Source of the DNA: a virus
Lineage: Duplodnaviria; Caudoviricetes
IMG/VR virus record: IMGVR_UViG_3300011443_000022
Location: 1 to 45,125 of that record
Strand: one strand, 5' to 3'
DNA length: 45,125 nt
Positions 2,934-43,843 of this stretch are shown here, piece by piece (positions within the stretch are counted from its first letter, which is position 1; each line of letters begins with the position of its first letter). Both the position numbers and the translations under genes were made by a program. Below the pieces are notes generated by a model that saw only the letters and a program-made list of their open reading frames with translations, did no database searches and was not told the DNA's origin.

Positions 2934-3090
2934 TGACTACTCCTTTCCTCATACACTCCTCTACTAACAGATCAAACCCTACCCTATCCTCCTTTCGGAA
3001 GTTCATCAACTCCATCATACTGACTGCCTTCGTCTCGCCAAACACAGCTTGAAGAACACCAATCTTCACCTTGATAGATAGTTCAACCAT
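2917..3090 (-). CDS. Hypothetical protein
   Basis: Likely start MVELSIK after AAGGAAG. Confidence 0.55.
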   Translation of the reverse strand: MVELSIKVKIGVLQAVFGETKAVSMMELMNFRKEDRVGFDLLVEECMRKGVVSVSEA

Positions 3091-3182
3091 CGCACTTCCT
3101 TCTTTCTTCTGTGGTAGCTCCACCTGTATTTACAGTGTGGTACTACACACCACATATTGTCTACGCCGTATTTCTGGTGTAT
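3066..3182 (-). CDS. Possible 38-aa peptide with ATA start
   Basis: AAGGAGGAG directly upstream of ATA CAC CAG AAA...; the first ATG is 9 codons further in; fills a gap between genes. Confidence 0.4.
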   Translation of the reverse strand: MHQKYGVDNMWCVVPHCKYRWSYHRRKKEVRWLNYLSR

Positions 3183-3195
3183 AGCTCCTCCTTTA

Positions 3196-3408
3196 CTAGT
3201 CAAGTAGAACTCCTACAACGGAGTTGATAAGCTGAGACTCGGATGAATCCACCTTCAACACCCTCACCCACATACTCCCCCCGAACGTAGGTGACACATG
3301 CACTTGATTGTCGTTCATGGTAATAGAGAACTTATGCCCTTCGGGGGTTGTAAGGGCTATAAGTTCATCCTCTTTGATATGAACAGAGCGTACTCGGTTG
3401 ATCATCAT
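3196..3408 (-). CDS. Hypothetical protein
   Basis: ORF with TAGGA RBS in a packed operon. Confidence 0.65.
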   Translation of the reverse strand: MMINRVRSVHIKEDELIALTTPEGHKFSITMNDNQVHVSPTFGGSMWVRVLKVDSSESQLINSVVGVLLD

Positions 3409-9472: not shown

Positions 9473-9571
9473 ATGTTTAATAATTGGATGGGCATTGTGG
9501 CAGTCGTAGTATTTGTTATCTTTGTCTTTTTCATTCTGGGTATTATCAATATTACCCCGATTTTTGAATGA
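9473..9571 (+). CDS. 32-aa single-TM peptide
   Basis: AAGGAG RBS; MFNNWMGIVAVVVFVIFVFFILGIINITPIFE; ATGA overlap with the next gene. Confidence 0.7.
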   Translation: MFNNWMGIVAVVVFVIFVFFILGIINITPIFE

Positions 9572-9795: not shown

Positions 9796-9804
9796 GAGAG
9801 ACAG

Positions 9805-16700: not shown

Positions 16701-18003
16701 TGTAAGTTTAACCTCCGCAGTTGAGGATTTCTTGCGGAGTAAACTTTCCCCCGTCGCTGGCGCAGGCGTTGACATATACACAGGGAGAAGCGCGGTAGGA
16801 GAGAAAGTCGGAGTCAAGCAGATTCCGCAAGAACTCCTCGCAAACATCGTTCCTTTAATTGCACAGGATACATATGAGGCGGTTAAAGAAGAGGGAATAA
16901 AGGGGGCGGCTGTTGCTCCTCTAGCCTTCGTCGGTGGAACGGTGTCTATTTCTCCTAAAACCGCTCGAACTCAATTCCTCGAAACCTTCAAAGAAAAGCA
17001 CCCTGAGATTAATACCGAGGATAAGAGTCTTGTTAACCTTATAGCAGCGGACGACCCTGAACTCTCTGCTCTACTTGAAAAATCCCGCGCACAGGCGTTG
17101 GAACGGGGAAGCGAGTCGGGGGTTACTATGGCAGAAAATGCTGCGTTCTTCAAAGAAAATGAAGATAAGGTTAATCTCCTGTCTCTAGCCAAATCATTAA
17201 AAAGTGGTAATGCGGAGGCGGGGCCAGCGTTCGCAGAGGCATATAAAAACTATGAAAAAGGTGTGGTGGAAGTCCTACAGCGGCAGTTTTTTGGTAAAGA
17301 ATCAGATGCGGCTGTCTCCCCTATCGGCCAAGCATTAGAACAGTATCGTCAAATCGAGCCAGAGTTCCTTCCCGAAGAGAACTCATACGATTGGGAGACA
17401 TATTTCACAGAGAAGGACAAGGCGTTTGCACGATTAAAGCAACTCAATCCCGACACTGCTCATGCTATCGAAAACAAACTTCGGACAGTAGACCCGACCG
17501 TACAACAGGTCGAGCTACAGTTTAAGAACGCCAAGAAGGCCTTTCACACAGCGTTAGGAATGAACAAATGGAAGGATAACATCGCTAATCAAGATATTAT
17601 CACGCAATTACACAAGGACGCACAGTTTGTCAATCAGCAACTTGCATTAGCAGGTAGACCAAACGCTAGTGTAGGACAGATATGGAAAATGGTTGCTGCG
17701 GCAAACCCAAATGTAGACCCACAAACTTTACGCATGGCTAGGAGGTTACGACCGGGAACAAAGTATAGTTTACGCCAGTCAAATCCAGAGCGGGAGCAGT
17801 ATTTGATAGATAATTACTTGGAGCTATCAGTGTTCTTTCCTACGCTTTATCGCTCAGAAAAGCTATTAAGGAAGATTGGGAAGAAGTATGGGAGAGCGGC
17901 GATTAACCGACAATTGCTACAAGTCGCCCCTCAAATCGGCTCAAGACTACCAAATAATCCCACAAATACCGGAAATAGTCAACTACAGTTGACACCAGCA
18001 TAG
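13720..18003 (+). CDS. Large (1427 aa) probable ejection/polyvalent protein
   Basis: Gly-rich hydrophobic stretch, Pro-rich linker, helical C-half with an LPD38-like segment (LRSKLSPVAGAGVDIYTGRSAVGEKV). Confidence 0.65.
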   Translation: MPYTPLKVKQSSSYKDLGKYQTTRQRMQRLGMLQAQPKPKPKEKKQGGGGFLGTGVGPNVSLGDVGERIGNIDFEQAARSSVGLSEERGNRPGGSPLLPGQPFRLGAPSELQGRSPAEAHLQESFRPYIPESANPLSRIPGPLGDEAAKLTSGMTSPAAIAMTLAGGTGVLPALGGFRPAAYSVGGGILGGTAGKYAEKAGVGKFRIPGPVGLDVGPAGVGELLGGFYAGPRGIRPNLGTKEEQILGLWKQRPPSELKPTRYINVPKSTEVFPTEANDLVDSLMRYKAGTVDMDIRVAPPRPDMGKPQGYITIDIHSRGKPSADNMVEVLHISRELAQANPGYRIKANVVNDRLMGTMRKLGLKGVDVPSARDPSKSIGANFDLSFEDLDEVYQRLPKDTPGMAGLVEGEDAGSAAQKAREVLDTAGTSHWSAGQVTSRAMRQGTKSLTQAERSTLLNANAGDAEATAALEAWLGISKGGAGRVTDEAALRRAFDNAASAEPPTPRGVMPSREELVAAWEAAGYRFTPETVPDYLPGGALGTQPGLLPDQPAQPGLSPGTTGAITPTSQPELIPGMGRQGEAVTPPLSNPPPLYPTHGEQGYFPGMGSSMEYQPRFPEMEPPPTPPREGPFPPGKEEARGETIGLGLYDEPTEDALRVMQNAIDGEPIGVMGRRTIAKYFGKDVADKFKKGSVLDEVLGLLNLPRAFLATGDASGTYRQAGLLNIAHPELAARMLKTQWRALTEDGALAVEQRIAKDPYTQKMLDNGLHLTSFRPGAAFGGLPTEKLQEESYLLGEGAAGRFVRSKPILRQSERAYVTGLNDVRHGYVKNILSKWEEAGDARFHDPKALKSLMTWANHATGRGLSSVQQNAALSSMNAVFFSPRLLASRVQTWADLVTELNKAARGQSNISRYIAEDMAKTYSAGIAALTFLSATGVAKTNTDPRSTQFGKAKFGSISVDMFGGSTPMMRLIALGGPAALKKGTVRTQAGELVDVSLTSAVEDFLRSKLSPVAGAGVDIYTGRSAVGEKVGVKQIPQELLANIVPLIAQDTYEAVKEEGIKGAAVAPLAFVGGTVSISPKTARTQFLETFKEKHPEINTEDKSLVNLIAADDPELSALLEKSRAQALERGSESGVTMAENAAFFKENEDKVNLLSLAKSLKSGNAEAGPAFAEAYKNYEKGVVEVLQRQFFGKESDAAVSPIGQALEQYRQIEPEFLPEENSYDWETYFTEKDKAFARLKQLNPDTAHAIENKLRTVDPTVQQVELQFKNAKKAFHTALGMNKWKDNIANQDIITQLHKDAQFVNQQLALAGRPNASVGQIWKMVAAANPNVDPQTLRMARRLRPGTKYSLRQSNPEREQYLIDNYLELSVFFPTLYRSEKLLRKIGKKYGRAAINRQLLQVAPQIGSRLPNNPTNTGNSQLQLTPA

Positions 18004-18036
18004 AAATAGTTTATACTAAAGATAGGAAGTGTTTAT
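17989..18036 (+). promoter_or_regulatory. Sigma70-type promoter with conserved box, upstream of scaffold/capsid
   Basis: TTGACA-17-TATACT; near-identical over about 37 bp to 5817-5853. Confidence 0.85.
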
Positions 18037-18873
18037 ATGACTACACCGGAAGATACGTTTGGACTGCCCAACACCGGAGACGGTACTTTGGCAACAGACG
18101 ACGACGAGACTCCGGTTCTCTCCGACGAAGATGAATCCGACGAGGAGGAAGAATCTGACGAGGATGAGTCAATCACCTACGAAAGTTGGATGCAGGCTCT
18201 CGAAGCCAATCCAGCAATAAAGGAAGCCTACACCACCCGGACAACGGAACGGGAAAAGGAACTTTCGACGGAAATCTACCGCAAGTTCCAATCCGCCATC
18301 CAACCAGCCGTTGATAGGTGGAGTCAGAATTCCGCAGCTACGAAGAACGCTCTATCAACCATAGCGAACAACATTCAAAAAGCCGTCGCGGACGGAAACT
18401 TGGAAGCTGACGATGTGGCGAGTATTCTGAACAGCAACCAATCCGCGTTGGACGCCTTCAACCAGCAGCAGTTTTGGGAGGGTACGAACTACATCCTGCA
18501 TACTCTAGGCGCAGCGACCGAGAATGAGTCGTTTGCAAACGAGTTCTTTGGCAGGATGTATGCGATGGCAAGCGGTAAGACAGATGTAGAATTTGCCTCT
18601 GATTTACTTTCCGCTATTGTAGACCCTGCCGTAATAGCTAAGGTTAAAGAAGCGGAAGATGCGGCTTACGCTAGAGGTTTGCAGGATGGCGGGAAGGTTA
18701 AGGCAGAAACCATTAAAGCAGAGACTAGAAGTGGTAAAGGCCCAGACCTAAACCCGAAGAAGAGTAGAACCGCAAAGCCTAAGTACACAATGGAACAACT
18801 AAAGAAAATGACGAGAGAAGAGATACTACAAATCCCTCGTGAAGACAGGGAAAGTGGTGCATTTCTCGCCTAA
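18037..18873 (+). CDS. Putative capsid scaffolding protein
   Basis: Acidic N-terminus, helical body, EQLKKMTREE C-terminal motif; directly precedes the capsid gene. Confidence 0.7.
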   Translation: MTTPEDTFGLPNTGDGTLATDDDETPVLSDEDESDEEEESDEDESITYESWMQALEANPAIKEAYTTRTTEREKELSTEIYRKFQSAIQPAVDRWSQNSAATKNALSTIANNIQKAVADGNLEADDVASILNSNQSALDAFNQQQFWEGTNYILHTLGAATENESFANEFFGRMYAMASGKTDVEFASDLLSAIVDPAVIAKVKEAEDAAYARGLQDGGKVKAETIKAETRSGKGPDLNPKKSRTAKPKYTMEQLKKMTREEILQIPREDRESGAFLA

Positions 18874-18888
18874 CAGAAAGATTAGCAC

Positions 18889-19743
18889 ATGACGATTGAT
18901 AATTTTATCCCGACCTTGTGGTCTGCGTCGTTGCTGGAAAACCTTAATGATGCTCATGTTTATGCTCCGCTTCTGAACACGGACTATGAAGGTGAGATTT
19001 CCGGGCAGGGTGATACCGTCAAGATTAACGCAATCGGTAGGGTGAGTGTTGGAACTTACGTGAAGAACGTAACCTCCATCTCCCCTGAGACGCTTGACGG
19101 TGGTCAGCAAGTCCTTACAATCACCGAGGCGGATTACTTCGCCTTCGAGATTGACGACATTGATAAGGCACAGCAAAAGCCGAAACTGATGTCTGCTGCA
19201 ATGAAGGAAGCTGCGTGGGCTATGTCCGACGAAGTTGACGTATTCATTGCAACGATGTTGGAAGCTGGCGTAGCAACCGCAGCCCCCGACAACACACTAA
19301 CCGCCGTTACCGTTGGTACTGGCGCAGCCGACGACGACGCCTACGAAACCCTCGTAGACCTACAGGTTAAGCTAACGGAATCCAATATTCCGCGAGCAGG
19401 CCGATGGGTAGTCGTCCCCCCGTGGTATCACGGTTTGCTTCTGAAAGACCCCCGGTTCGTTTCGTTCGGCACCAGCCCCAACCTTGGGGTTTTGAAGAAC
19501 GGGCAGATTGGGCAGGCCGCAGGATTCACCATTGTCGAATCCAATAACGTCCCCGTTTCCGGTGCAGCCTATACGGTTATCGCTGGATACAAGGGAGCGG
19601 CTACCTTTGCAGAGCAGATTGACGACCCCGAAGCATACCGCCCCGAAACAGCGTTCTCGGACGCCGTTAAGGGTCTGCATGTATACGGGGCTAAGGTTAC
19701 GCGCCCGTACGGTTTGGCCTCAGTAGTGGCGACGGCGGCATAA
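18889..19743 (+). CDS. Major capsid protein (HK97 fold, P22-coat-like family)
   Basis: NFIPTLWS, DYEGEI..GDTVKI, FAFEIDDID, P...RWVVVPP, GF.I.ESNN, VKGLHVYGAKV.RP. Confidence 0.93.
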   Translation: MTIDNFIPTLWSASLLENLNDAHVYAPLLNTDYEGEISGQGDTVKINAIGRVSVGTYVKNVTSISPETLDGGQQVLTITEADYFAFEIDDIDKAQQKPKLMSAAMKEAAWAMSDEVDVFIATMLEAGVATAAPDNTLTAVTVGTGAADDDAYETLVDLQVKLTESNIPRAGRWVVVPPWYHGLLLKDPRFVSFGTSPNLGVLKNGQIGQAAGFTIVESNNVPVSGAAYTVIAGYKGAATFAEQIDDPEAYRPETAFSDAVKGLHVYGAKVTRPYGLASVVATAA

Positions 19744-19757
19744 GGAGAGTATAGAAC

Positions 19758-20129
19758 ATGGCAACTACAGCACTCCCCGTTGTTACCCTCGTCCACAACA
19801 CGCCTTCGGCTGACCTTCTCGATGCGAACGGTGTTGCAGCTACGACTCCCGCCGATGGGTGGGTGATTGCCGCTGCTGGCATTGAAGGTGGAAGACTCCT
19901 GATTAAGCTACTCGCAGACGCCACTGGCGACACTGTGACGTTTCTTGCAGGAGACAACCCCCCCTCTCATCGAAAGGGTCTAGGCAACTTGGCCGTTGTA
20001 CTAGCCGCATCGGATGTCCGCTACCTTGTTCTTGAATCAGGTCGTTTCCTACAGGACGACGGCACGATTCTCGCAACTTGTACGGATGCCGGTACGACTC
20101 TACACGCCTTCTTGCTGCCTAAGACGTAA
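19758..20129 (+). CDS. Probable capsid decoration/minor virion protein
   Basis: Beta-rich; follows the capsid gene with AAGGAG RBS; LESGRF motif. Confidence 0.6.
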   Translation: MATTALPVVTLVHNTPSADLLDANGVAATTPADGWVIAAAGIEGGRLLIKLLADATGDTVTFLAGDNPPSHRKGLGNLAVVLAASDVRYLVLESGRFLQDDGTILATCTDAGTTLHAFLLPKT

Positions 20130-20138
20130 CAAAAAAAT

Positions 20139-20222
20139 CCAGTGACGGTTGGGCAACTCCGCTAGTGGGGAAGGGGGTGATTCTTCTAATCCTACTAGCG
20201 GGGCCAAGCCCTACACAGGAGG
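20139..20222 (+). promoter_or_regulatory. Long structured intergenic hairpin abutting an AGGAGG RBS
   Basis: CCGCTAGTGGG/CCTACTAGCGG stem, inner GAAGGG/TTCTTC, outer GGGC/GCCC; G-U pairs favour the + strand RNA. Confidence 0.65.
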
Positions 20223-20228
20223 TTTGAA

Positions 20229-20705
20229 ATCGGATACCTAGACCAAGTACGACCCGCCGAAATTTTCGGCAAAGAAATGCACTTCCGCCATATCGGAATT
20301 GCTGCATATACGAAATCGAAAGCAGGGGCTAAGACAGGTACAGCTATCACAGGTGGTGTGGTTGAATCTGAAATAGTCACAGGGGGTCAGACATTAGTCC
20401 TCACCCTAACGAATGGAGAGTGGATTCGCTCTGGGCTGTTTAACGCCCAACGAGCGAACATCATCGCTGGCATTGACTCTGCTCAGGCTGAGGCTGCTGG
20501 CTTTGACGCACGTAAGGCTACCATCCTTCCCGTCACAGCCGTTGTACGTACCAGCGATACCGTAGTCACCATCACACTTGTTGCTGATGCTGGCTATGTA
20601 ATTACCGCAAACGAAACTATTACGGTTACGGTTCCTGCCTCTGCCATTGACGGGCAATTCCAGCCTCTCAGCATGGGCACATTTGTAATCACGGCGAACG
20701 CATAA
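20229..20705 (+). CDS. Ig-like/beta-rich virion protein; probable ATC start at 20229 (alternative ATG at 20277)
   Basis: AGGAGG-6 nt-ATC in frame with ORF 20277..20705; VVRTSDTVVTIT and ETITVTVPASA beta pattern. Confidence 0.7.
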   Translation: MGYLDQVRPAEIFGKEMHFRHIGIAAYTKSKAGAKTGTAITGGVVESEIVTGGQTLVLTLTNGEWIRSGLFNAQRANIIAGIDSAQAEAAGFDARKATILPVTAVVRTSDTVVTITLVADAGYVITANETITVTVPASAIDGQFQPLSMGTFVITANA

Positions 20706-21412
20706 TGCCTCCAAGGTTTCGCGTAGCCTATCCTAGAGAACATGTATTACGCCCACAGGAATGGGCTGATTCCGCAGGCACAGACTTCTGGCTGGTCGCT
20801 GGCCCCGGTGGTATGCTTACTGCTACTACTATCCAAGAGCTAGCGGACTATGGTTGGACAGCCACCGCCCTTACCTTCACAGCCGCCTCTGGTGCGGATT
20901 TTCTTAGTTCTGCCGATGTAGGTGTACCGAACACTATCGACTTCGGCGCATCAGGAGACTTGCTAAAATCCCCCGCAATCTTTGGTGATTATAACCATGG
21001 ATTGCTGGCGGCACAGCTATTAAAAAAGCGACCGACTAAGCTAGTAACGGAGTGTTATGCACAATTCAGTGTTGCGACAGCGAATGAACCGACTTCTGGA
21101 TTTGGTCTGGTCGAAGATGGCGGGACTCCTGCTACAGCCGCAGACCATATGGCGTTCATTTCTACAAACGGAACAAACTTCCTCTGCGCCAGTGGTGCCG
21201 CCTCAGATACCGGAGCCTTAGACGACTCCCTCTTCCATAAGTTCAAGACTATCGTGCGTAATACCGACAGCCTTGTTGAATGGTATATTGACGATGTTAG
21301 TCAGGGAACGCTAGCGGTTCAAGCCGACGAATGGCCTGTGTCGTTTGGCGCACACGTTCTAACCACTAACCGCCTTCAACTAGCATGGGCGCATATCTAC
21401 TATGACTACTAA
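20705..21412 (+). CDS. Virion protein with probable lectin/ConA-like beta-sandwich
   Basis: FHKFKTIV...VEWYIDDVSQGT pattern; structural module. Confidence 0.55.
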   Translation: MPPRFRVAYPREHVLRPQEWADSAGTDFWLVAGPGGMLTATTIQELADYGWTATALTFTAASGADFLSSADVGVPNTIDFGASGDLLKSPAIFGDYNHGLLAAQLLKKRPTKLVTECYAQFSVATANEPTSGFGLVEDGGTPATAADHMAFISTNGTNFLCASGAASDTGALDDSLFHKFKTIVRNTDSLVEWYIDDVSQGTLAVQADEWPVSFGAHVLTTNRLQLAWAHIYYDY

Positions 21413-28895: not shown

Positions 28896-29080
28896 TATTC
28901 CGTCAACTCAAATCCATCAGAGAAGACATCCTCCAAGGTCTTGCCTTCCTTCTTCTTTGCCGCCTTTTTCTTAGGCGCTTCCTCTACAATCTCCTCCACT
29001 ACAATCTCCTCCACTACTGCAATACCGTCTCGGTGGTGCTTTCCGTGTGGCTGTGGGGGGGTTCTTTGGCTCTTACTCAT
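28895..29080 (-). CDS. Hypothetical low-complexity protein
   Basis: TAATG-coupled on both sides; 15-bp tandem repeat encoding VVEEI. Confidence 0.65.
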   Translation of the reverse strand: MSKSQRTPPQPHGKHHRDGIAVVEEIVVEEIVEEAPKKKAAKKKEGKTLEDVFSDGFELTE

Positions 29081-30423
29081 TACGGTAATACTCCTATCTT
29101 AGTCACTACGTTTGCTTGTATTGTACCATTTTCATAGTCTCTCTGGTAACACCCACTACCACAGCTAGAGCGTGGGCCTAGCGGCTCACCATAATCGCTG
29201 CTCCATAGAGTACTGAATGCGCTACCTTGTCCGTCGTGTGATGGTGTGCTATAGAAATCCCCACTTTCCCTTGCTATAAGATACATTGCTAGGCCGAACT
29301 CATCCTGCGCCGCAGTGTAGTCGGTATAACTATTATCCGCTCTACGTTCAAAGTCTAGCACTGCTGTTCCAAGACCGTGTAACCTATCCAAGTAGGCTAG
29401 ATAATCCTCCGCCCCGCTAACTGTATTACATCCATGCCTACACTGTATCCAGCCAAACTCTATCTCAACAGCATCAGGCGCGGCCCAGAACCTATCAGCA
29501 TTAGTACCATCTAAAGCCTTTAAGCTATTCCATGTTGTGTATTGGCTGTTCAGAATCAGCGGCCCATCGACCTCGTTCTGCATCCGCTCGGCCAGCGTTG
29601 CCCACGCCGCCAACCAATCCGCATTCGACACCACCGGCGTACCCTGACAGTCACTAGCATGGGGTAGGTATGCCTCCGCCACATCAATGTAAATCCCGTC
29701 GAATGCGCTCTCAGCCACTAATGCTTGTAGCTTAGCGATAATCTCGTTCTGCACATCCGCTTGTGTTACATCCGCCAGATACCGCTGACTGTTATCATCC
29801 GGGCCAAACCCATTCTGATAACATACACCGCTTGACGCCTGTAAAATATCTGAACAGTCTGTCCCCGGCTGCTCCCCTTCACACTCTGGCGTACAAAATT
29901 CATCATTCAAGCCACATATCTTAGTACTATCCTGATAAACGTACGTCGTTCCATTAAAGGCATTGCCATACTCTCGACAAATGCCACAATCAAAAGTATT
30001 AATCGCCTCGTAGTTGGTGTTCATCATTGCCGCCCCCGCTGTGGGGTTAGCATCCCACTGCGCGTCGAAGTCCAACATCTTCGACATATACCTTACCTGT
30101 GTATCACACCAGCTAAAGTTCAACATAACATGAATCAAATCTTGAATGTTAATCCAGTTATAGGGTGGGTCTATTGTACCCAAATCTCCGGGGCCGGGTA
30201 CAACATCCCACCTTACATCATAGTTAGGGTGGCCCGGTGCTGTCTCCAACCTTCGGATAGGCGCAATAAACGATGTAACATCTAGGATGCTTACTTGTCT
30301 ATCGTTAGTTAAATCCAAGGGACAGGAGGAATCGAACCCTTTAGTCTGGGTATCATTTGAGCAAGCTATAGCTAGTATAGAAAACAGCAATAGCAACACC
30401 CCTCCCGCAATCCATTTCTTCAA
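29080..30423 (-). CDS. Lipoprotein with dockerin-like module and putative glycoside hydrolase (GHL15-like TIM barrel)
   Basis: Lipobox LAIAC; DLTNDRQVSILDV...WINIQDL; FDGIYID; FGLAMYLI; DYGEPLGP...YQRDYENGTIQAN. Confidence 0.7.
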   Translation of the reverse strand: MKKWIAGGVLLLLFSILAIACSNDTQTKGFDSSCPLDLTNDRQVSILDVTSFIAPIRRLETAPGHPNYDVRWDVVPGPGDLGTIDPPYNWINIQDLIHVMLNFSWCDTQVRYMSKMLDFDAQWDANPTAGAAMMNTNYEAINTFDCGICREYGNAFNGTTYVYQDSTKICGLNDEFCTPECEGEQPGTDCSDILQASSGVCYQNGFGPDDNSQRYLADVTQADVQNEIIAKLQALVAESAFDGIYIDVAEAYLPHASDCQGTPVVSNADWLAAWATLAERMQNEVDGPLILNSQYTTWNSLKALDGTNADRFWAAPDAVEIEFGWIQCRHGCNTVSGAEDYLAYLDRLHGLGTAVLDFERRADNSYTDYTAAQDEFGLAMYLIARESGDFYSTPSHDGQGSAFSTLWSSDYGEPLGPRSSCGSGCYQRDYENGTIQANVVTKIGVLP

Positions 30424-30436: not shown

Positions 30437-31183
30437 TTAAAACCATCTCACCGGAGTTTGCGCTAGATTTCTATGCGGAGCCAACTCCTTAAACACCCGC
30501 TCTAGTTCCACTACATCCTTCTGACAGTGTTTGATAATATAATTCAGCGCATCTGCATCCCCCCTTAATGCTCGTAGCCATATTTGTCCGACGATGCTAT
30601 CCTTCTTTGTCTTCCCAAAAAGGAAATCCCCTACACTAGCAAGCCGATTACTATGCAGCTTCAACTTCCAGCGGGAAGTATAGTACATATCGACGTGTCG
30701 CGCATAACCAAGCGTTGGCACACCTGCGGCTATCGCCCTCGTAGTAGTAAACGGCATGTCATACCCTGTACCATACCACGTCACAATATAATCATACTTA
30801 CGTAGCTCTTCGATAATATCAGGAACGATTGTCTCGTCCCCCGCCACACCTTCAATAGCGAAGGTCTTAGTCTTACCCCCGACCGGCTTGATACAAGCAC
30901 ACAGCATAGCCCCAAAATCAGCGTCAAGCTGTGTAGCTTCAATATCAAAGATAGCAAAGGATTTGTTTTTCAAAATCCATGCGTCTTTAGCTTTGTTTCT
31001 TTCCGCCCTTGCCTGCTTGCGGTGTTCTTCTAACTCCCATGCAGTTTCATCATAGATTCTAAGCGGGGTAGCAAGCCTCTTTACACTGTTCTCCTGCTTC
31101 CGCTTACACTTACAATCCTTACAATACTTCGCATTATGTACTGTTGAATCAACCTCATGGCAATTGTCGTAAACACATCTCAT
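30437..31183 (-). CDS. RNase H-fold 3'-5' exonuclease (RNase_H_2/YprB-like) with N-terminal Zn finger
   Basis: FDIEA, TWYGTGYDMPF, HVDMY, HCQKDV. Confidence 0.85.
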   Translation of the reverse strand: MRCVYDNCHEVDSTVHNAKYCKDCKCKRKQENSVKRLATPLRIYDETAWELEEHRKQARAERNKAKDAWILKNKSFAIFDIEATQLDADFGAMLCACIKPVGGKTKTFAIEGVAGDETIVPDIIEELRKYDYIVTWYGTGYDMPFTTTRAIAAGVPTLGYARHVDMYYTSRWKLKLHSNRLASVGDFLFGKTKKDSIVGQIWLRALRGDADALNYIIKHCQKDVVELERVFKELAPHRNLAQTPVRWF

Positions 31184-32891: not shown

Positions 32892-33211
32892 TACAGCGCC
32901 AATCTCAACACACTATCATCAGTACGGAAGGACACAACATCCCCCGCCATCATGTTAAGCTGAGCAATGGCGTTCTTGTAGCCCTTAACTTCAAGAGCAG
33001 GCTTAGTTGGAGGACGATTCTGATAGCCTAGACCCACTTCGACACCGCGTTCGATTTGGTCGAGAGCTATCTTTGTAGCCTTCTTCTGCCACGCTGCTAG
33101 TTTATCAGGATAACCCGCCTGCTCGGCCAAAAACTTCTGCTGTTCCCGTTCAATCTTAACCTCTAATGCTTGAATAAGCATAGCCTTATTAAACTTCTGT
33201 GCTGTTGCCAT
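32891..33211 (-). CDS. Hypothetical helical protein
   Basis: AAAGGA RBS before MATAQKF. Confidence 0.7.
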   Translation of the reverse strand: MATAQKFNKAMLIQALEVKIEREQQKFLAEQAGYPDKLAAWQKKATKIALDQIERGVEVGLGYQNRPPTKPALEVKGYKNAIAQLNMMAGDVVSFRTDDSVLRLAL

Positions 33212-33974
33212 TGTTATATTCCTTTCCAATCACCATGCGATAAAGCATATCGAACGTAACATCCGCTAAGTCCAGCCCTAGCAGACTCTCCTTCAACTTG
33301 CTCGTTACAATCTTACTCATATGCGTCCGCTTATCCGGCACCGTAACCACATTCACCTTACCCACTCCTGCTTCTACCTGCGCCTTCTCTGTCGGCACCG
33401 CAATCTCAGGACAGTGAACGTAGAGTTCCGTGTTTAGCCAACTCCTTGTATCTCCGAATCCTTTTCTATCCATTCCATCAGTCTTAGTCTTTGCTCCTGC
33501 CCATACAGGTGACGCGGTGGTACTAACGCAGACCTGTATACCACTCCGTGCCAGTCTTTGATAGTGGGTGTTAAAGTAGTTATTAACCCCTGCATGGTCG
33601 CGCGGCATAGCGTCCTCTGGAAGAAGCGCCGTCCGAACAATGGACAGAAAACGGTTCTCTCCGTCCAAGAAAAATCCTTTACACTGAGCGATGGCTGTGC
33701 GTACAGCCGCGTCAAACTGTAAGAGTAATCCCTGTGCGGCAGAAGGAGAGAGAGTATCCAAATCAACCTGTATAGGAACATAATACAACTCCTTCGTGTT
33801 GGGTAACTTCGCCACTAGACTTCCCGCTGGTCTATCACAGTTAACAAACATCAACGGAGAGGGTAGGCTTAGTCCAACGCTACTCTTCCCCGTACCTTCT
33901 AATCCAAACAGACCAATAAACAGAGCATCTTCTTCTTCACCTGTTGGCCTCTGTCCACCTACTAACTTTTCGAT
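33189..33974 (-). CDS. P-loop ATPase (AAA_24/Sak4/RecA-like); probable ATC start at 33974
   Basis: Extending ORF 33189..33854 upstream in frame gives IEKLVGGQRPTGEEEDALFIGLFGLEGTGKSSVGLSLPSPLMFVNCD (Walker A); Walker B-like FFLDG; AAGGAG 7 nt before ATC. Confidence 0.8.
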   Translation of the reverse strand: MEKLVGGQRPTGEEEDALFIGLFGLEGTGKSSVGLSLPSPLMFVNCDRPAGSLVAKLPNTKELYYVPIQVDLDTLSPSAAQGLLLQFDAAVRTAIAQCKGFFLDGENRFLSIVRTALLPEDAMPRDHAGVNNYFNTHYQRLARSGIQVCVSTTASPVWAGAKTKTDGMDRKGFGDTRSWLNTELYVHCPEIAVPTEKAQVEAGVGKVNVVTVPDKRTHMSKIVTSKLKESLLGLDLADVTFDMLYRMVIGKEYNNGNSTEV

Positions 33975-33986
33975 GACACTACTCCT

Positions 33987-34733
33987 TTACCCTGCCTCAA
34001 TACACGCCGTTTGAATCCGGCAGTACCCACACGGAAACTTATCCTTCAACGGATTAAACTCCCTTCTTACCTGCGAAATATCGTTCACAGTATCCACTAG
34101 ATACTTCACTTCCTCGCTCCTTATCTTCGCCTCATACTGATTCCCTTCATCCCGTGCAATATACCTCACAAAGAACTCAGGCAAATCCTCCGTTTGTTTA
34201 CCCCACTGGTGCTGCCCCTGCCGCCACAGCTTATTCGCCGCAGACCAATCCTGCACAGTACAGTGAAGTACCGCTCCCTCGCAGTCCGGCAACCCCATCA
34301 GATAACTCTGCATCTGCATGTAGTAGCCGGGGTCGCCTACCTCCACACCCAAACACAGTATCTTTATATACCCGTAGTATCCTAGGAATTTACTATCGAC
34401 AAGATACGTCTCTCCGTCTTTAGCAAGCCAGTCATACTCACCAGTCATAGGCGTACCCGGAATCTGGAACCTTTCGCCCGTACCCGCTGTTACCTCAAAC
34501 CCCGCTGCCTCATACACTCTCCGCAAGTACGGCTCTATCCCCTTACCCGCCTCCATCTTGATAATGTTATTATCGGGAGGAAAGTCAGTCGCAGGCATCT
34601 TCACACCCACACTCCACTGAGAACGAATACAGCCCCTTACCCCGCTAGGAGAAGGAGCATCATGCGGTGGAGCCTCTCGATATATCTTTTGTATAGCATT
34701 ACTCAGTCGTAAGTGTAATCCGATTTCATCCAT
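33987..34733 (-). CDS. Cas4-like PD-(D/E)XK exonuclease with Fe-S cysteines
   Basis: SPS...C.R, GEYD...LVDSK, QMQSY, CGYC.....C. Confidence 0.85.
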   Translation of the reverse strand: MDEIGLHLRLSNAIQKIYREAPPHDAPSPSGVRGCIRSQWSVGVKMPATDFPPDNNIIKMEAGKGIEPYLRRVYEAAGFEVTAGTGERFQIPGTPMTGEYDWLAKDGETYLVDSKFLGYYGYIKILCLGVEVGDPGYYMQMQSYLMGLPDCEGAVLHCTVQDWSAANKLWRQGQHQWGKQTEDLPEFFVRYIARDEGNQYEAKIRSEEVKYLVDTVNDISQVRREFNPLKDKFPCGYCRIQTACIEAG

Positions 34734-34763
34734 AAAACCTCTTTAACTTTTTAACAAAGGGGT

Positions 34764-34802
34764 AGGCGGGGGTGGAGAAAGGAGGAAAGCCACGCCCCGC
34801 CC
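34764..34802 (-). promoter_or_regulatory. GC-rich hairpin with anti-Shine-Dalgarno loop
   Basis: Minus RNA GGGCGGGG-C-GUGG [CUUUCCUCCUUUCU] CCAC-CCCCGCCU. Confidence 0.75.
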
Positions 34803-34817
34803 TGATGTAGAAATAGA

Positions 34818-35588
34818 CTAGCTGTTGAGGCTAACCGGCTTCAACGTACCATCTCCATTAACCTCCATGGGTAGAAGGTCAACAAGAGAACCATCTGCCG
34901 CAGCACCAATGAGATTCACTCCCTTAAATGTCGGCACAGACTTGACAAAGCTATCACCGAGAATAACATCGAAGACCTGAGAGGGTTGCTTGCCCGTCAG
35001 AATCTCGACCAGCTTAGCCTCAGTCGCACCATCATCCACAGCCACAGGCGTAGGAGATACCGCCACTCCATCCTCAGAATTCCTGCGAACAAGAATCCTC
35101 TTCTCCCCCCTGAACTGGTAGTCCGGCCCTCCAAGATGAGCAATCGGAACATTCACCCACGTCACCCGCTTCCCCTCAACCTTCCGCCCTTCAAAGACGA
35201 ATACCTGTCCGATAATTTCCTGAGACTTGGGGTTCCCCGGCCATACGGTAAACCCTCCGGGAATACCATCGGCTCGCGGACATTCGCGGAACGCCTTGGC
35301 TAGAATCGTCGGACGACTACCGGGGCCGTAAGGCTCTCCCGCATCGTTCTTCCACATCAGGCCAGCACCGCTGTAAGTCCCTGCCTCTGGAATATTCCCA
35401 TCTTCAAACACAGCGTCAAGCGCCTGTACTTCCAACGCCCACCATGCGTCCGGCACACCCCTTGCAGCAACCACCGCACTGTACTGTTCAGGCACAGTCG
35501 TCAGGTGGTTCGCGGTAACTCTACCAACGTGCGTCCGCTTCTGCTCTGGTGCATTTTCTGGGTCATAATTACTAGGGTCGTAACTCAA
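34818..35588 (-). CDS. Hypothetical protein (possible ssDNA-binding protein, by position only)
   Basis: Own promoter and GGAGG RBS, TTG start; heads the nuclease-ATPase cluster. Confidence 0.6.
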   Translation of the reverse strand: MSYDPSNYDPENAPEQKRTHVGRVTANHLTTVPEQYSAVVAARGVPDAWWALEVQALDAVFEDGNIPEAGTYSGAGLMWKNDAGEPYGPGSRPTILAKAFRECPRADGIPGGFTVWPGNPKSQEIIGQVFVFEGRKVEGKRVTWVNVPIAHLGGPDYQFRGEKRILVRRNSEDGVAVSPTPVAVDDGATEAKLVEILTGKQPSQVFDVILGDSFVKSVPTFKGVNLIGAAADGSLVDLLPMEVNGDGTLKPVSLNS

Positions 35589-35631
35589 TTAAACCTCCAT
35601 GAGTTGTAGAATGTGGAAGGATTTCTCTCCT

Positions 35632-35669
35632 CCCTATTATAGTATAACATATCGCCGCCGCATTGTCCA
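35632..35669 (-). promoter_or_regulatory. Sigma70-type promoter
   Basis: TGGACA-17-TATACT with TG extension; ATATGTYATACTATAA shared with the promoter at 44248-44286. Confidence 0.8.
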
Positions 35670-35671
35670 TC

Positions 35672-35974
35672 CTATTCTTCTTCCGTCGCCGGTCGGCGGC
35701 GCTGCATATACCAATTATGTGCTTGGCGGCGGCTCTCTAACACAACTTCCTCTGCATCTGGATACCTAGGTGCTATAGAATCTAACCACTCCTCCTCTTC
35801 TATTAGTCTCTTCATTAGTCTGTATTCTTTTTGGCTCGGAGGTTTGAACTTACCCTTCCGATTAAACTGCTTAGCCTTTCCGCAGAATTTACATATACCG
35901 AGTAGATACTTAGCCTTAGTCTTATCCGCAGATTGAATAAGCCAATGGTGGTCGCAGTCTGCTATTACCTTCAT
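35672..35974 (-). CDS. Hypothetical protein with probable Zn site
   Basis: CxHHW...CKFCG. Confidence 0.7.
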   Translation of the reverse strand: MKVIADCDHHWLIQSADKTKAKYLLGICKFCGKAKQFNRKGKFKPPSQKEYRLMKRLIEEEEWLDSIAPRYPDAEEVVLESRRQAHNWYMQRRRPATEEE

Positions 35975-38569: not shown

Positions 38570-39141
38570 AAATTCAACGCCTCCTTTTCTCTGCGACTCC
38601 TCACACTCCCAATACTATCATTCACTACACTACTATCCGCACACAGTCGCGTCAACCTATGCCTTAGAGTATCGTCCTTGGTTTTACTAACAAACCCCAT
38701 TAACTCATTCAGTACCTCCCCTACTCTCCGCAAATTCCTATCCTTAATGTAATCATTCAACCTCTTCTCTTGCATATTCAGATACGTTTGGAACATACTC
38801 TCTCGCTTAGCCTGTTCCGCTGCGTTCTTCATCTCCCTGTCCCACTCTATCTGCTCCACCACCGCTTGCATTTCCGGGTCGTTTTCGGCTAAAGCAGTCG
38901 CTAACTCGTATCCCAACACCACAGCGGCATGTAACATGAGCCTGTGCAATGACGCGCCGTACGGCAGGCTCCTGTGATTCGCTAAGATTTGCAAGTTTTC
39001 TCGCAGTCTTGGCGGCATTGGAACGTGGACAGTTGCAGAGTTTCTTTCCTGAGGGAGAGAATGTTCCCCGTACCCTACGTCCATTAACCATGTTAAATCC
39101 GCATGAATAGCATCAACCGCTGTTTTAACCGCATCATCCAC
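38548..39141 (-). CDS. Possible ribbon-helix-helix-type regulator with coiled coil
   Basis: SATVHVPMPPRLRENLQILA...SLHRLMLHAA strand-helix-helix pattern. Confidence 0.45.
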   Translation of the reverse strand: MDDAVKTAVDAIHADLTWLMDVGYGEHSLPQERNSATVHVPMPPRLRENLQILANHRSLPYGASLHRLMLHAAVVLGYELATALAENDPEMQAVVEQIEWDREMKNAAEQAKRESMFQTYLNMQEKRLNDYIKDRNLRRVGEVLNELMGFVSKTKDDTLRHRLTRLCADSSVVNDSIGSVRSRREKEALNLWLESAL

Positions 39142-39950
39142 TATGCCTGCCCCTGCAACCAATCAATACGATGCTGGTCGAATGACGTAGTGTGCGCCAT
39201 TAAGAAATCTAGTTTACTAGGGAACGTCTGCGTTGCCCCGTTCGGCCATGTAACCGTATAGGGTTCCAGCGTCCACTGCGCCAGCTTTTCCAATGTCTGT
39301 GATTGTCGTTCTGTAAGTGCCAATTCATCCTCCGTACTAAAGTAACTATCGCGGAATGTGTTGAGGTCTACCGCCACCCCCTCCAACACTGTTGTATTCT
39401 GATACTGCTCCCCCATCAAATCGGCTATCTGCCATAAGCCATAAGGGGAGGTAGGAAAATCTATATCAGGGTTGCTATCATAAAAGGCGTTCCATAGATT
39501 CGGAAAACGCGCCTTCCATCGAGGGTCGTTCTTACTAGGTAGGGTATTCCAAAACCACTTCGCAGAATAAAGAGTATTACATATATGCCCCGACTCTATA
39601 CCTACATGCTGAGCTAACTCCGCCGCTCTCTCGTATGTAGTCCCTGCTATCTCCACATCCATAAACACCCATAGTAAACGTTCCCACTCATCACCGCAGT
39701 TTGCTTCGATCTTATTCATTTGAATTGGTAAACTCCACCAATCAGGAGGAGAGGCATTAACATAGGCACACGAAATTAATCCTGCCTCCCTAGCACAGCG
39801 TAGATTATTCTCACATACTGCCTTTATCCCCGGATTACCTGCTAACCCCCCCGTCCAAGCACACTGAACAAATACCTCATACCCCTCAGCTTTCCTATTC
39901 GCCGCCCACTGTGGAGTAATTTTACTAAACGATACGTCTATCCCCCTCAC
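39141..39950 (-). CDS. GH25-like muramidase (putative endolysin)
   Basis: GIDVS, FMDVE, LYS..WFW, LWNAFY, QYQ...VDLN. Confidence 0.8.
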   Translation of the reverse strand: MRGIDVSFSKITPQWAANRKAEGYEVFVQCAWTGGLAGNPGIKAVCENNLRCAREAGLISCAYVNASPPDWWSLPIQMNKIEANCGDEWERLLWVFMDVEIAGTTYERAAELAQHVGIESGHICNTLYSAKWFWNTLPSKNDPRWKARFPNLWNAFYDSNPDIDFPTSPYGLWQIADLMGEQYQNTTVLEGVAVDLNTFRDSYFSTEDELALTERQSQTLEKLAQWTLEPYTVTWPNGATQTFPSKLDFLMAHTTSFDQHRIDWLQGQA

Positions 39951-40198
39951 TCGTACACTACCTCTAACCTATCCACCACACTACACTTCGGTATAAGCAT
40001 AGGAGTATGCGCTGTCCTAACATCCTTCTGTCCACCAATTGAAGAAGCTAGTACAATCACATCCGCATCCTCATCCAATACAAATCCAATAGACTGACAT
40101 ACCATATCAGCCTTATAATCTGTCAGTATGTCCTCGACATCCGTCCATCCCATCTCTGGTGTGTGTGAATCAATCCACCGCACGTAACTAATATGCAT
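39947..40198 (-). CDS. Conserved phage hypothetical protein
   Basis: V.WIDS....GW, SIGFV..D....VLASS, IP..V pattern. Confidence 0.75.
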   Translation of the reverse strand: MHISYVRWIDSHTPEMGWTDVEDILTDYKADMVCQSIGFVLDEDADVIVLASSIGGQKDVRTAHTPMLIPKCSVVDRLEVVYE

Positions 40199-42336
40199 TA
40201 CTTAGTCTTTTCCCATCTATAACTCACGAACAAGTCTATCTCCATAGGTATTCCCTTAACAACTTCCCTTGCTGCCTTCATCATAGCATAACTAAGCACA
40301 TCCTTACTATGTTCTACGTCTACCTCATCGACCTCAGTGATAATCTCATCATGGCACTGGTGTATAATATCCTCCCGTGTCTCCTCATAAATATCCATAG
40401 CTTCCTTTGTCATATCCCCTACCGTACCTTGAATCGGAGAGTTCTTCGCCTGTCTCTCAGCGTGACTCCTCTTCACAGCATGGTCGCTCCATAAATCCGG
40501 CAGCTTCCTCCTTCTCCCATGCATAGTCTCACTGTAACCCAAAGAATATGCTAACTGTACCTGCCTGTCCAACCACTCATTCAATACAGGGTACGCCTGC
40601 TCGTGTGCTGCAAAAATCTCCATCGCCACACTCAACGGCATTCCCGTAACCTCGGCTAGTTTCTTCACTCCCCCACCATATAGCTTCTCGAAGTTCGCCG
40701 CCTTCGTCGCTACATACTGGCGCTCCGTATAGTCCCTACCATACAACCTCACCGCTAGTTCTTTATGCGGACTCCGCCCATCTTTGAACATCTGTAGTAG
40801 GTTCTCATCGCCCGACATTACCGCCGCGACTCTTAACTCCGCTCCGCTGTAATCCGCAATAACAAACTTCTTCCCCGGCCTAGCCCGAATCAACCTCCGC
40901 ATCGGAGCAGGAAAGTTCTGCCCATCACTCGAAATCCTACCCGTTTCAGTCCCATGAATTTTATATGTAAACTGTATATGCCCCGGCAGTAGCGGCTTTA
41001 AATACCGACTCCTCTGTAAAGTAATATCATTCCAATACAAGAGCAGCTTAGCCAACGGATGCTCACACGCTTCAAGCACACTCTTATCCACTGATTGTTT
41101 CTTAGTTTTTGTAGTGCGCTTCGGCAGTAATTGTATATGCATTTCTTTGAACGCCTGCCGCACCTGCTCGTCCGAGTTGGGATTCTCTACCCCACTGACC
41201 TGCCGTATCCGCTCCCTCAGTACATCTAGCTTAGCCTCTATCCCCTCACTGAGTACCTGTGCCCCTTCCGCATCCGTATCCATGCCAGCAAGCGTACAAC
41301 GCGCCAGAATGGGTATCAGCGGACGGTCAATACTCTCATACAGATGAGACTGGTATGGCTCTAACGTAAGAGCTTCGTGTAATCTCCACGTCAACACTGC
41401 ATCTTGTGCCGCGTTCTCAGCCCCGAACCCTAGCTCTTTACTACTTACTCCATGCAATCCAATCCTAGCCGCTGCCCCCTTCAACGACAAATCATCCTCG
41501 TCCTTCTCCCACAACTTAATCATCGTATCATGTGGGGGAGAATCGAACGTATACCTATCTCCTAAAACCACCATATCGTAGAGTGCGTGGTGCATGACAG
41601 CCACACCCACATGTGTTCTAATCTTTTCGCCAGTATAATCCCTCCAATCTATAACAGTAGCATCAGCCATACCGTTATAATGTCCACTATAATTAAGCAC
41701 CGCCACTCGTGAGTCTAGACTGTTGGTTTCAGTATCAATAGCCTCACTCAAACTTCGATAAGTAAGCGGCTGTACTGTGTTAAACTTAAACTCTTCTTTA
41801 GGGGCAGACTCCCTCCCGCCTGCTGCTAGGGAGAGCATGGCTAGTACCCCACCCACTAGCTCGGCGTATGCTCTGCGACTCCCTCTCTTCCTCATTATGT
41901 AAGAGGGGTGGAACATAGCGTAGCACTGTGCTTGCTTCTCTTCCGACCACATCACCCGCCCGTTCCTCTGTGTCTGGCTTCCTTTGAATCCTAGCCAGTC
42001 CGTTGCATATTTCCCGCAGCCAATAATAACGCTCGGCTTCCACTTCTCTACCTCCTGTTCTAGCTCCGATAAGCAAGCCGCTAGTTCCTCTTCAGTTGGG
42101 TCGTTCCTCTCCGCTGGCGGTACATACTTACACATATTCGAGATATAGTAGTTCTCTATACCTGCCTTATTCATCCACTCCCGCATCAACCGGCCACTCT
42201 GCCCTACGATTGGTCTACCTACCACTCCCTCTGTCCTACCCGGACATTGCAGGAGGAGCATAATACCGTTCTGTTTGGGAGTACCTACCCATTCTGCTCC
42301 AACGTATACGTTAGTTGGATGTACTACATTTCGCAA
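40198..42336 (-). CDS. polA: Family A DNA polymerase with N-terminal family-4 uracil-DNA-glycosylase-like domain (SPO1-type architecture)
   Basis: UDG: QCPG..E...GRPIVG.SG, N..K..P, FHPSY. Exo: DTET, YD, QDA. Pol: TGRISS, DYSGAELR, K..NF...YG, NSPIQG, HDE. Confidence 0.95.
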   Translation of the reverse strand: MRNVVHPTNVYVGAEWVGTPKQNGIMLLLQCPGRTEGVVGRPIVGQSGRLMREWMNKAGIENYYISNMCKYVPPAERNDPTEEELAACLSELEQEVEKWKPSVIIGCGKYATDWLGFKGSQTQRNGRVMWSEEKQAQCYAMFHPSYIMRKRGSRRAYAELVGGVLAMLSLAAGGRESAPKEEFKFNTVQPLTYRSLSEAIDTETNSLDSRVAVLNYSGHYNGMADATVIDWRDYTGEKIRTHVGVAVMHHALYDMVVLGDRYTFDSPPHDTMIKLWEKDEDDLSLKGAAARIGLHGVSSKELGFGAENAAQDAVLTWRLHEALTLEPYQSHLYESIDRPLIPILARCTLAGMDTDAEGAQVLSEGIEAKLDVLRERIRQVSGVENPNSDEQVRQAFKEMHIQLLPKRTTKTKKQSVDKSVLEACEHPLAKLLLYWNDITLQRSRYLKPLLPGHIQFTYKIHGTETGRISSDGQNFPAPMRRLIRARPGKKFVIADYSGAELRVAAVMSGDENLLQMFKDGRSPHKELAVRLYGRDYTERQYVATKAANFEKLYGGGVKKLAEVTGMPLSVAMEIFAAHEQAYPVLNEWLDRQVQLAYSLGYSETMHGRRRKLPDLWSDHAVKRSHAERQAKNSPIQGTVGDMTKEAMDIYEETREDIIHQCHDEIITEVDEVDVEHSKDVLSYAMMKAAREVVKGIPMEIDLFVSYRWEKTK

Positions 42337-43086: not shown

Positions 43087-43536
43087 TTATCTCCAAGGAT
43101 ACCATCCTTGACTCTGCCATAATTGATACGCCTTCTCCACATTCCACCCAACCTCAGTACATCTACCCCAAAAATCCGGCCACTTCCCTGCATGTATAGG
43201 GTGAATCTGAAACAACCCACACGCACCACTCCCTTGATAATTCCACTTCCACGGCTCTCCTCCACTCTCTCTGTACATATAGTAGAGAGCTACACTGCAC
43301 GGCCAAGGCATACTACATACAGTAGATTCTATCTCCGTCAGCGGCGGGTAAATTGGAACCCATAACCTGTCAAGTACAGGTTCAGGGGTTGGACTGGGCG
43401 ATGGAGTAGGCTGTTCTCCTCTAGCAACCACACTCCATTCATATATTCCGTAATAGTCTATGCTATTACTATCCCGCTCTGACGCGCTACATCCTATTAG
43501 GAGTAACGCGCAGAGCAAGATAGCTAGACACCGCAG
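43087..43536 (-). CDS. SLT/lysozyme-like lytic transglycosylase, probable lipoprotein; probable CTG start
   Basis: RESGG, GACGLFQI, N...A..LW...GW.PW; signal (M)RCLAILLCALLLIGC begins at CTG 5 nt after GAGG. Confidence 0.8.
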   Translation of the reverse strand: MRCLAILLCALLLIGCSASERDSNSIDYYGIYEWSVVARGEQPTPSPSPTPEPVLDRLWVPIYPPLTEIESTVCSMPWPCSVALYYMYRESGGEPWKWNYQGSGACGLFQIHPIHAGKWPDFWGRCTEVGWNVEKAYQLWQSQGWYPWR

Positions 43537-43627
43537 TTATACCTCACGAGTTAGTCCTTCCTTCCTAGAACTAACCCGATCAATGCTACTCCGATAAAGG
43601 TACAGACCATCAATCGGGAATCCCAAG

Positions 43628-43843
43628 TCAGTTACTCACTCCGAAGACTAAGTCCTGACAGGCCTGACAGAGCCCAGAGATCCGGTACTCGTCACGGCTA
43701 ACGCTGTCTCGGAACGCAATGGCTGGTTTGCCGCAGCCATAGGGCTCGCGGACGCAGACATCGTTCTCGATGGCTGTCGTCCTTCCCGTCATGCTCTCCA
43801 GCATGGCCTCCAGTTCTGGTGACTTCTCAGTCGGCGTCCCCAT
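43628..43843 (-). CDS. Cys-rich hypothetical protein
   Basis: AAAGGAG before MGTPTEK; EY.ISGLCQ.CQD. Confidence 0.7.
   Translation of the reverse strand: MGTPTEKSPELEAMLESMTGRTTAIENDVCVREPYGCGKPAIAFRDSVSRDEYRISGLCQACQDLVFGVSN

Follow-up and report, generated by a model that had tools for sequence, protein, structure and literature searches.

The DNA analysed here, a 45,125-nucleotide window covering positions 1 to 45,125 of the IMG/VR virus record IMGVR_UViG_3300011443_000022 (Caudoviricetes), carries on its minus strand a gene for a RecA-fold ATPase that very probably begins with an ATC codon at position 33974. A second gene, on the plus strand and coding for a protein with a predicted immunoglobulin (Ig)-like fold, appears to begin in the same way at position 20229. 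We consider that ordinary near-cognate initiation, supported by a Shine-Dalgarno (SD) sequence and giving lowered output, is the probable, though far from certain, account of both genes, as judged from the comparison of sequences and from published precedents. The features that matter for the first gene are the following.

33189..33974, minus strand: ATPase of 261 amino acids counted from ATC, a RecA-fold P-loop protein, AAA_24/Sak4-like by its homologues and its structural model
33972..33974, minus strand: ATC, putative start codon of the ATPase, placed by the start column of the homologues and the same in sequencing runs X3 and X12
33982..33988, minus strand: SD sequence AAAGGAG, overlapping the TAA of the nuclease gene and lying 7 nucleotides before the ATC; -8.2 kcal/mol, rank 18 of 62 assigned starts
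33882..33905, minus strand: Walker A motif GLEGTGKS, which the first canonical codons, TTG 33854 and ATG 33851, follow only further on; G29 and K30 are invariant in the alignment
33962..33979, minus strand: out-of-frame mini open reading frame (ORF) of five codons opened by GTG, 2 nucleotides behind the SD, probably unused; no indel in other runs
33987..34733, minus strand: gene for a Cas4-domain exonuclease, in the frame of the ATPase and ending with TAA (phrog_1990, E 6e-8)

Read base by base on the minus strand, the arrangement is the one that an earlier reading of this sequence, hereafter the original prediction, had described: the nuclease gene ends with TAA (33989-33987), AAGGAG occupies 33987-33982, and after a spacer of 7 nucleotides comes the in-frame ATC (33974-33972). 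The 44 codons that separate the nuclease stop from TTG 33854 contain neither ATG nor GTG nor TTG, and the Walker A motif is encoded within them; the ATPase can be made whole only from a non-canonical start. GTG 33979 is out of frame and meets its stop after five codons, GTC 33977 directly precedes the ATC, 4 nucleotides behind the SD, and the other in-frame near-cognate codons that come before the Walker A motif have no SD (CTG 33923, -1.9; ATT 33917, -1.0; CTG 33911, +1.0). At both ATC genes the spacing falls within 5-9 nucleotides (AAAGGAG-7 and AGGAGGT-5), energies and spacings being scored against a generic anti-SD sequence that may differ from the 16S tail of the host. All four members of the 90% cluster of this ATPase (12 contigs, this genome included) are called in the database at 220 or 208 amino acids, without Walker A, as expected if none of them has a canonical codon upstream.

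What gives the ATC its weight is the family to which the protein belongs. A search of 1.84 billion representative proteins, without a length limit, returned 28 non-self matches of 136-328 amino acids, and a word-based search additionally found P0002, which is 57% identical to the ATPase. The alignment comprises P0002 and 26 of the 28 matches, a 136-residue fragment and a 326-residue protein having been left out; the start codons of its members are deduced from gene calls, hence 'canonical enough for a gene caller', rather than from DNA. Methionine stands in the ATC column in 13 of the 27 homologues, and the Walker lysine, which is residue 30 when counted from ATC, is found at residue 26-31 in 22 of them; one of the remaining homologues is called longer and four are called shorter (Walker lysine at 10-17). 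P0002 starts with MEKITGG, in register with the IEKLVGG read from ATC, and its identity to the ATPase amounts to 28/39 over residues 2-41, as compared with 122/218 over the rest. The model, for its part, places the first strand and the P-loop (strand E19-24, helix H30-34) in the segment that the canonical call would lose. The original prediction had held that this Walker A could only be made from the ATC; the alignment supports the view that ATC 33974 would be the start position of the family, and we regard it as highly likely that the ATPase does start there.

The nuclease and the ATPase share a frame interrupted by one TAA, and the N-terminus of the ATPase might be produced otherwise: by read-through of the TAA, giving a 514-residue nuclease-ATPase fusion, by initiation at GTC 33977, or by initiation at GTG 33979 followed by a frameshift. 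A GTC start has been proven in the sigR gene of Streptomyces (PMC5472188), and some homologues of the ATPase begin one residue earlier than the ATC column. Against read-through, no fusion-length homologue exists among the 28 non-self matches, the longest of which has 328 residues, and TAA is the commonest stop, ending 26 of the 47 genes counted, a figure on which reassignment of this codon was also rejected. The GTG lies 2 nucleotides behind the SD, and no usable slippery site was seen in the sequence. These routes leave the ideal spacing between SD and ATC unexplained and do not account for 20229, and we hold all of them together to be very unlikely.

An error of assembly might be a one-base indel that puts the GTG in frame, a danger named by the original prediction, or a G miscalled as C. 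Contigs from 4 of the 24 sequencing runs considered were compared over 33000-35800. The X3 contig (33000-34902), a different allele with six substitutions elsewhere and no gap, and the X12 contig (33851-34008), identical across the ATC, bridge the site unchanged, while X6 and X2 cover it near contig ends, with 26 and 3 letters on one side respectively. No difference among runs is listed between 33373 and 35201, and no indel is listed anywhere. The M-E-K of the homologues is in register with ATC-GAA-AAG without any indel, and all variants were called short by independent callers. The error is refuted at the level of contigs, and its probability is close to nil.

The second gene, close to the major capsid gene, has the following layout.

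20229..20705, plus strand: protein of 158 amino acids encoded two genes after the major capsid gene, with a predicted Ig-like beta-sandwich and a putative ATC start (homologues, model)
20217..20223, plus strand: SD sequence AGGAGGT before ATC 20229; 7-nucleotide match, -11.5 kcal/mol, rank 4 of 62 assigned starts
20156..20202, plus strand: long intergenic stem-loop upstream of this SD (predicted fold)

The AGGAGG-6-ATC pattern already noticed here in the original prediction is present and is backed by the start column of the homologues. The best 120 of 489 homologues were used, 32 near-full-length ones being chosen and joined by the orthologue in L015, a locus from a related phage: in these 33 selected sequences the ATC column holds 32 methionines and one valine, and Y3 is invariant. 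An unselected check found the N-terminal motif in 38 of the 119 non-self matches listed, directly after the first residue in 35 of the 38. The database calls, 142 amino acids from ATG 20277 in all three close variants (13 contigs), would drop 16 residues, the invariant Y3 among them. The Ig-like sandwich occupies residues 27-158 of the model (best fold-search match with Z 9.0, root-mean-square deviation 3.0 and 107 residues aligned). The X3 contig spans the site with three other letters and no gaps, the ATC itself not being read directly there. The stem-loop lies between a gene ending at 20129 and the ATC gene; the z-score is -2.1 for 20130-20260, and 3 of 200 shuffles were as good. It has no U-tract, is not a consensus terminator, and may process or stabilise the transcript; a scan for promoters and terminators near 20229 found nothing. 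The metatranscriptome run X24, compared over 2900-20800, yielded eight pieces, all within 9617-20800, the late structural region. None of them bridges 20229, which says nothing on starts, and they give a weak hint of active infection, as they are contigs only and may include DNA carry-over.

Several observations weigh against taking the two ATCs as working starts. The product from ATG 20277 would retain the Ig domain, so that the case for ATC 20229 rests on the conserved N-terminus together with the strong SD. L015 and L016, the closest capsid relatives for which DNA is at hand, have ATG at the orthologous position, and the relatives P0002, P0046 (74%) and P0049 are called with methionine; the ATC is thus not conserved in distant relatives, and nothing suggests that a weak start has been selected over the long term. 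The SD of 33974 is not of the extended type, and its strength is upper-middle. Finally, the informative substitutions among the ATPase alleles are concentrated in the last 140 nucleotides of the gene, possibly a recombined tract. As far as these sequences tell, the ATCs are lineage-specific, the nearest relatives starting canonically.

One may then wonder whether the ATC is the mark of a pseudogene, a recent loss of the start codon having silenced the genes or left them to decay. ATG to ATC is a single substitution, the relatives are canonical, and the strains compared are close, X3 differing at no fewer than about 90 places over 17.9 kb. Every close variant shares this state, however (12 and 13 contigs for the two genes), frames, SDs and Walker A are intact, and substitutions are mostly silent: the six that X3 has in the ATPase gene comprise four silent and two conservative changes. 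Two genes would have to lose their function by the same change, one of them related to Sak4, which is required for the replication of staphylococcal phages (PMC5499656), in a phage that is present in many samples (half or more of its words in 12 of 24 runs). The original prediction had foreseen that ATG in all relatives would point to recent inactivating mutations. This is true of distant relatives, which are canonical, and fails for close variants, which also have no canonical start called upstream and thereby speak against a one-off inactivating mutation; we find the decay of these genes quite improbable.

The nature of the ATPase deserves comment. Pfam AAA_24 (PF13479) was found in 18 of the 28 alignment members and the PHROG Sak4-like family (phrog_124) weakly in all three homologues scanned, while the ATPase itself matches neither; in its Atlas neighbours, 28-44% of the members have AAA_24. 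The 261-residue model (predicted local distance difference test, pLDDT, 90.5) shows a RecA-core fold with Walker A and without the RecA C-terminal domain. Its top PDB matches are RAD51/RecA/KaiC (E 2e-9, template-modelling score ~0.48), its top matches among viral structures are phage AAA-domain or RecA-like proteins, and a PDB search with the sequence returned nothing. We file it as a putative, and likely, Sak4-like DNA-recombination protein, on the strength of homologues and model. Sak4 has been described as an annealing protein that consists of the RecA core only, depends on ATP and is stimulated by its own single-stranded DNA-binding protein (SSB) (PMC5928155). The likeness to the Sak4 of phage HK620 and to AAA_24/PHROG 124 proteins lies in a RecA-core-only P-loop architecture of similar size, with Walker A, beside an exonuclease gene; the difference is that the present protein matches neither profile library, and that annealing activity and a cognate SSB are putative here. 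The Sak4 literature consulted mentions no non-canonical start, although no search was aimed at this point. Within the family, the short-called homologues are P0170, P0178, P0186/P0193 and P0192/P0195/P0196. The calls of P0186 and P0193, two proteins of different origin, begin at one and the same point within strand 1, and in P0197 the frame is open upstream of the P0192 call; it is possible that these are non-canonical starts in other lineages. DNA of ATPase relatives was not found in viral contigs (queried with the protein, a two-sequence alignment, P0186, P0170 and P0197), a metagenome scan returned this genome only, GenBank phages gave no match, and neither did any of 401 genomes from the phylum of genome G001.

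Further genes bear on the way this phage starts its proteins.

34818..35588, minus strand: TTG-start gene with a GGAGGT SD and of no known family; its position alone makes it a candidate for the SSB of the recombination module
43087..43536, minus strand: putative lipoprotein with weak lysozyme/SLT-like similarity in its sequence (SLT_3, E 0.052, below cut-off)
43551..43631, minus strand: hydrophobic ORF of 26 codons, its CTG overlapping an upstream TGA (CTGA), from the sequence
3066..3203, minus strand: small ORF with candidate starts TTG 3203 (AGGAG-6) or ATA 3182 (AAGGAGG-4), from the sequence

The candidate SSB has no Pfam or PHROG match and no useful PDB sequence match. The remaining near-cognate sites that the original prediction had gathered are all there in the sequence, and are of unequal value. 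GAGG-5-CTG at 43536 is plausible: starting at CTG would give a signal of 16 residues ending in LLIGC, which we take to be lipobox-like, whereas the in-frame TTG 43518, six codons on, would leave 10; the sole homologues are those of its own 90% cluster, all called from TTG, with no distant homologue to decide; a variant of the lipoprotein, P0010/P0012, is 86% identical. The CTGA overlap at 43631-43628 has an in-frame ATG at codon 8 and nothing further in its favour, and AAGGAGG-4-ATA at 3182 has, seven codons upstream, an in-frame TTG behind AGGAG-6, the exact product of which is absent from the protein collection. The 62 starts assigned by hand are made of 46 ATG, 7 TTG, 6 GTG, 2 ATC and 1 CTG. 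TTG starts do exist, as had been remarked, but at 7 of 62 (11%) they are ordinary when set beside the 7.8% quoted for bacteria (PMC5499595), and a TTG excess was rejected as evidence. A curious mirror image of the ATC genes, which have an SD without ATG, is provided by the terminase large subunit (7041) and the major capsid protein (18889), which have ATG without a recognisable SD (~-0.5 and ~-0.9 kcal/mol).

When ORFs of at least 120 codons were screened, 3 of 35 were flagged in the window (33974, 20229 and 43536) as against 5 of 1132 in 94 related phage loci (p=0.0013). Where a long ORF has a strong SD that no canonical start follows, a near-cognate codon comes next in 3 of 4 cases in the window and in 5 of 54 in the 94 loci, the background being ~9% (Fisher p=0.007). 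The criteria were set after the candidates had been seen, which tells against giving these figures their full weight, and the loci used for comparison come from distant phages as fragments, some non-genes being counted with them. A tendency of the whole genome to SD-led near-cognate starts is thereby supported, without being proved. A rival account is a host with lax selection of start codons, in which AUC works almost like AUG and a change from ATG to ATC behind an SD, being nearly neutral, drifted to fixation in several phage genes. Such a host is favoured by the two to three independent near-cognate starts that this 45-kb genome contains, each of them derived with respect to the relatives, by the background level of comparable ORFs in related loci, and by the AUU/AUC starts reported as frequent in Mycoplasma gallisepticum (PMC5499595). 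Yet 59 of the 62 assigned starts are canonical, and L015 and L016 keep ATG at the 20229 orthologue; we deem this account unlikely, while granting it more credit than any other rival of ordinary initiation.

Known biology provides precedents for ordinary initiation. AUU, AUC and AUA are non-canonical starts against which initiation factor 3 (IF3) discriminates (PMC4611024). In Escherichia coli near-cognate codons work at 1-2% of AUG, with an N-terminal methionine (10.1101/063800), and in Staphylococcus aureus they reach ~10%, and up to 30%, behind extended SDs (PMC13009471); the ATT of Enterococcus faecalis ebpA lowers expression, and this gene was mis-annotated at a downstream ATG (PMC4447247). 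The claim that such starts require relaxed fidelity was too strong, published cases reaching, with a normal IF3, some 1-30% of the AUG level. Annotated bacterial rates of these starts are 0.004-0.024% per codon (PMC5499595), and the annotation of phage SPP1, in the extract consulted, lists AUG, GUG and UUG starts only (PMC6316719).

The phage genes share with infC (AUU/AUC) and E. coli pcnB (AUU) an AUH codon, the lead of an SD and the expectation of formylmethionine (fMet) at reduced efficiency (PMC5499595, PMC4611024). The infC codon, however, is kept throughout bacteria and completes a loop of autoregulation, whereas the phage ATC is lineage-specific with no feedback evident: the family-wide conservation of a non-canonical codon typical of infC is not seen, distant homologues starting canonically. 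With ccpN (AUA), cvfC1 (AUU) and citZ of S. aureus and ebpA (ATT) of E. faecalis the likeness is that of a functional gene with a weak codon, a good SD, an annotation that missed or shortened the gene and an output that is lowered there and probably here (PMC13009471, PMC4447247). Those cases are chromosomal, bench-tested and mostly conserved, unlike the phage case, which is known from sequence alone; and ccpN and cvfC1 have extended SDs, while the SD of 33974 is not extended and that of 20229 is a 7-nucleotide match. The sigR gene of Streptomyces, repressed by IF3, also has its non-canonical start in a coupled operon, where it sets protein ratios (PMC5472188); the regulatory role is shown for sigR only, and its codon is GTC rather than ATC. 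The open-access literature that we searched contained no report of an ATC start in a phage Sak4 or recombinase gene, nor of a phage inhibitor of IF3.

Ordinary SD-supported initiation at ATC would then proceed as follows. Ribosomes of the host would initiate at the ATC with fMet-tRNA, the register being held by the well-spaced SD, and the first residue would be methionine. Output should stay below that of AUG, the IF3 of the host presumably discriminating against AUC. Ribosomes that finish the nuclease at its TAA, 12 nucleotides upstream, might lend some help to the ATPase start. In this phage lineage the recombinase and an accessory head protein would probably be tuned down constitutively, and the phage would need to encode no switch.

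Such a switch was the most daring part of the original prediction: the phage would lower IF3 activity or alter the use of initiator tRNA, and the AUC and CUG genes would be turned on during infection only. There are precedents for its elements, as non-canonical starts can be controlled by IF3 (sigR; PMC5472188), propagation of M13 is blocked by an excess of IF3 (PMC2268962) and huge phages encode IF3 (PMC7162821); most of the small early ORFs of the present phage belong to no known family and could include an inhibitor. Against it, the genome contains no tRNA and no Rfam match, no IF3 C-domain (PF00707, the control being positive in 10 of 14 genomes) and no translation-factor match among the proteins scanned, while in the relatives these proteins are made from canonical starts. 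The related proposal that start-codon identity serves as one regulatory switch fares no better: the ATC genes belong to different modules, replication and head, on opposite strands, which is unlike a single temporal switch. Neither claim was borne out, and we give a phage-encoded switch only a slender chance.

The genome in which all this takes place has a G+C content of 49% and a 123-nucleotide terminal repeat, its ends being classed by IMG/VR as direct terminal repeats, while CheckV estimates completeness at 72%. It encodes a terminase, a major capsid protein, a family A polymerase with a uracil-DNA glycosylase domain, a helicase, ThyX, an amidoligase and a glutamine amidotransferase, and it is present in at least 24 freshwater-sediment and groundwater runs, of which 12 contain half or more of the sampled words; one of the 24 is possibly the source of the record, and several perhaps stem from one campaign. 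Matches to named phages do not exceed 51% identity, and a terminase search found no viral relative. The best capsid relative, L015 (75% identity), is 17.5 kb of a 23.8-kb contig in an Anaerolineales metagenome-assembled genome, possibly misbinned; it represents the structural region of a related phage, with the same gene order. This binning is weak evidence for a Chloroflexota host, and the family of the 20229 protein has its only match, among 401 genomes, in that Anaerolineales genome. The family A polymerase and the weak SLT-like match make us lean towards a bacterial host; the CAP-domain protein gave no host signal.

Restriction-like sites are avoided to an extreme degree throughout the genome (observed versus expected): GATC 26 versus 369 on both strands, CCWGG 1/56, GGWCC 1/38, about 18 six-base palindromes at zero, and, among non-palindromic words, GAGGTG/CACCTC 0/13, GAGACC 0/16 and CTCCAG 2/20. 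The absence of GAGGTG also removes the strongest SD extension. This avoidance suggests a host, or a host range, with very many restriction-modification systems, the methylome of which could fingerprint it. As a cause of the ATCs it was rejected, since a canonical codon in place of ATC would generate words that are only mildly avoided at 33974 (CATG 0.77), and no avoided word at 20229. In strain X3 the variable region 3556-5090 is rearranged, with a skip of 830 nucleotides and a replaced segment of 194 nucleotides, near the switch between early and late strands. For a small phage, several products look secreted or lipoprotein-like (29080-30423, 43087-43536, 8895-9461 and 6555-6977): a glycoside hydrolase of the GHL15 family carrying a lipoprotein-like signal, the SLT-like lipoprotein, a protein with a CAP domain and one with a signal peptide. 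The polymerase (40198-42336) is fused to its N-terminal glycosylase domain, and its TTG start falls within the last part of a Cys-rich ORF; an RNase H-like exonuclease has its own gene at 30437-31183. The ORF 39141-39950, of 269 residues, has no Pfam or PHROG match, and its N-terminus presumably resembles a GH25-type muramidase.

We can understand these two genes as a new instance, in an uncultured phage, of a mechanism that is already known; present evidence indicates no new one. The bolder reading, that the host is an uncultured sediment bacterium whose ribosomes take AUC and CUG almost as ordinary starts, or that an early phage protein disarms IF3, licensing the recombinase, the head protein and a wall-acting lipoprotein only in infected cells, is in our opinion doubtful. 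Were it true, the identity of the start codon would act as a gate on host range or on the stage of infection, and P0170, P0178, P0186 and P0192 would be further cases in the ATPase family. What the ATPase gene does offer is a clean example, anchored in homologues, that core-function phage genes can start at ATC. Its consequence for annotation is of some importance: the recombinase that standard gene callers deliver lacks its Walker A and looks like a dead ATPase, and every database copy of the cluster is truncated. Two to three such starts in about 60 genes are dense in comparison with annotated bacterial rates (PMC5499595). This density hints that counts of weak starts in environmental phages are too low, and it makes this genome a simple test case for the start-codon fidelity of its host.

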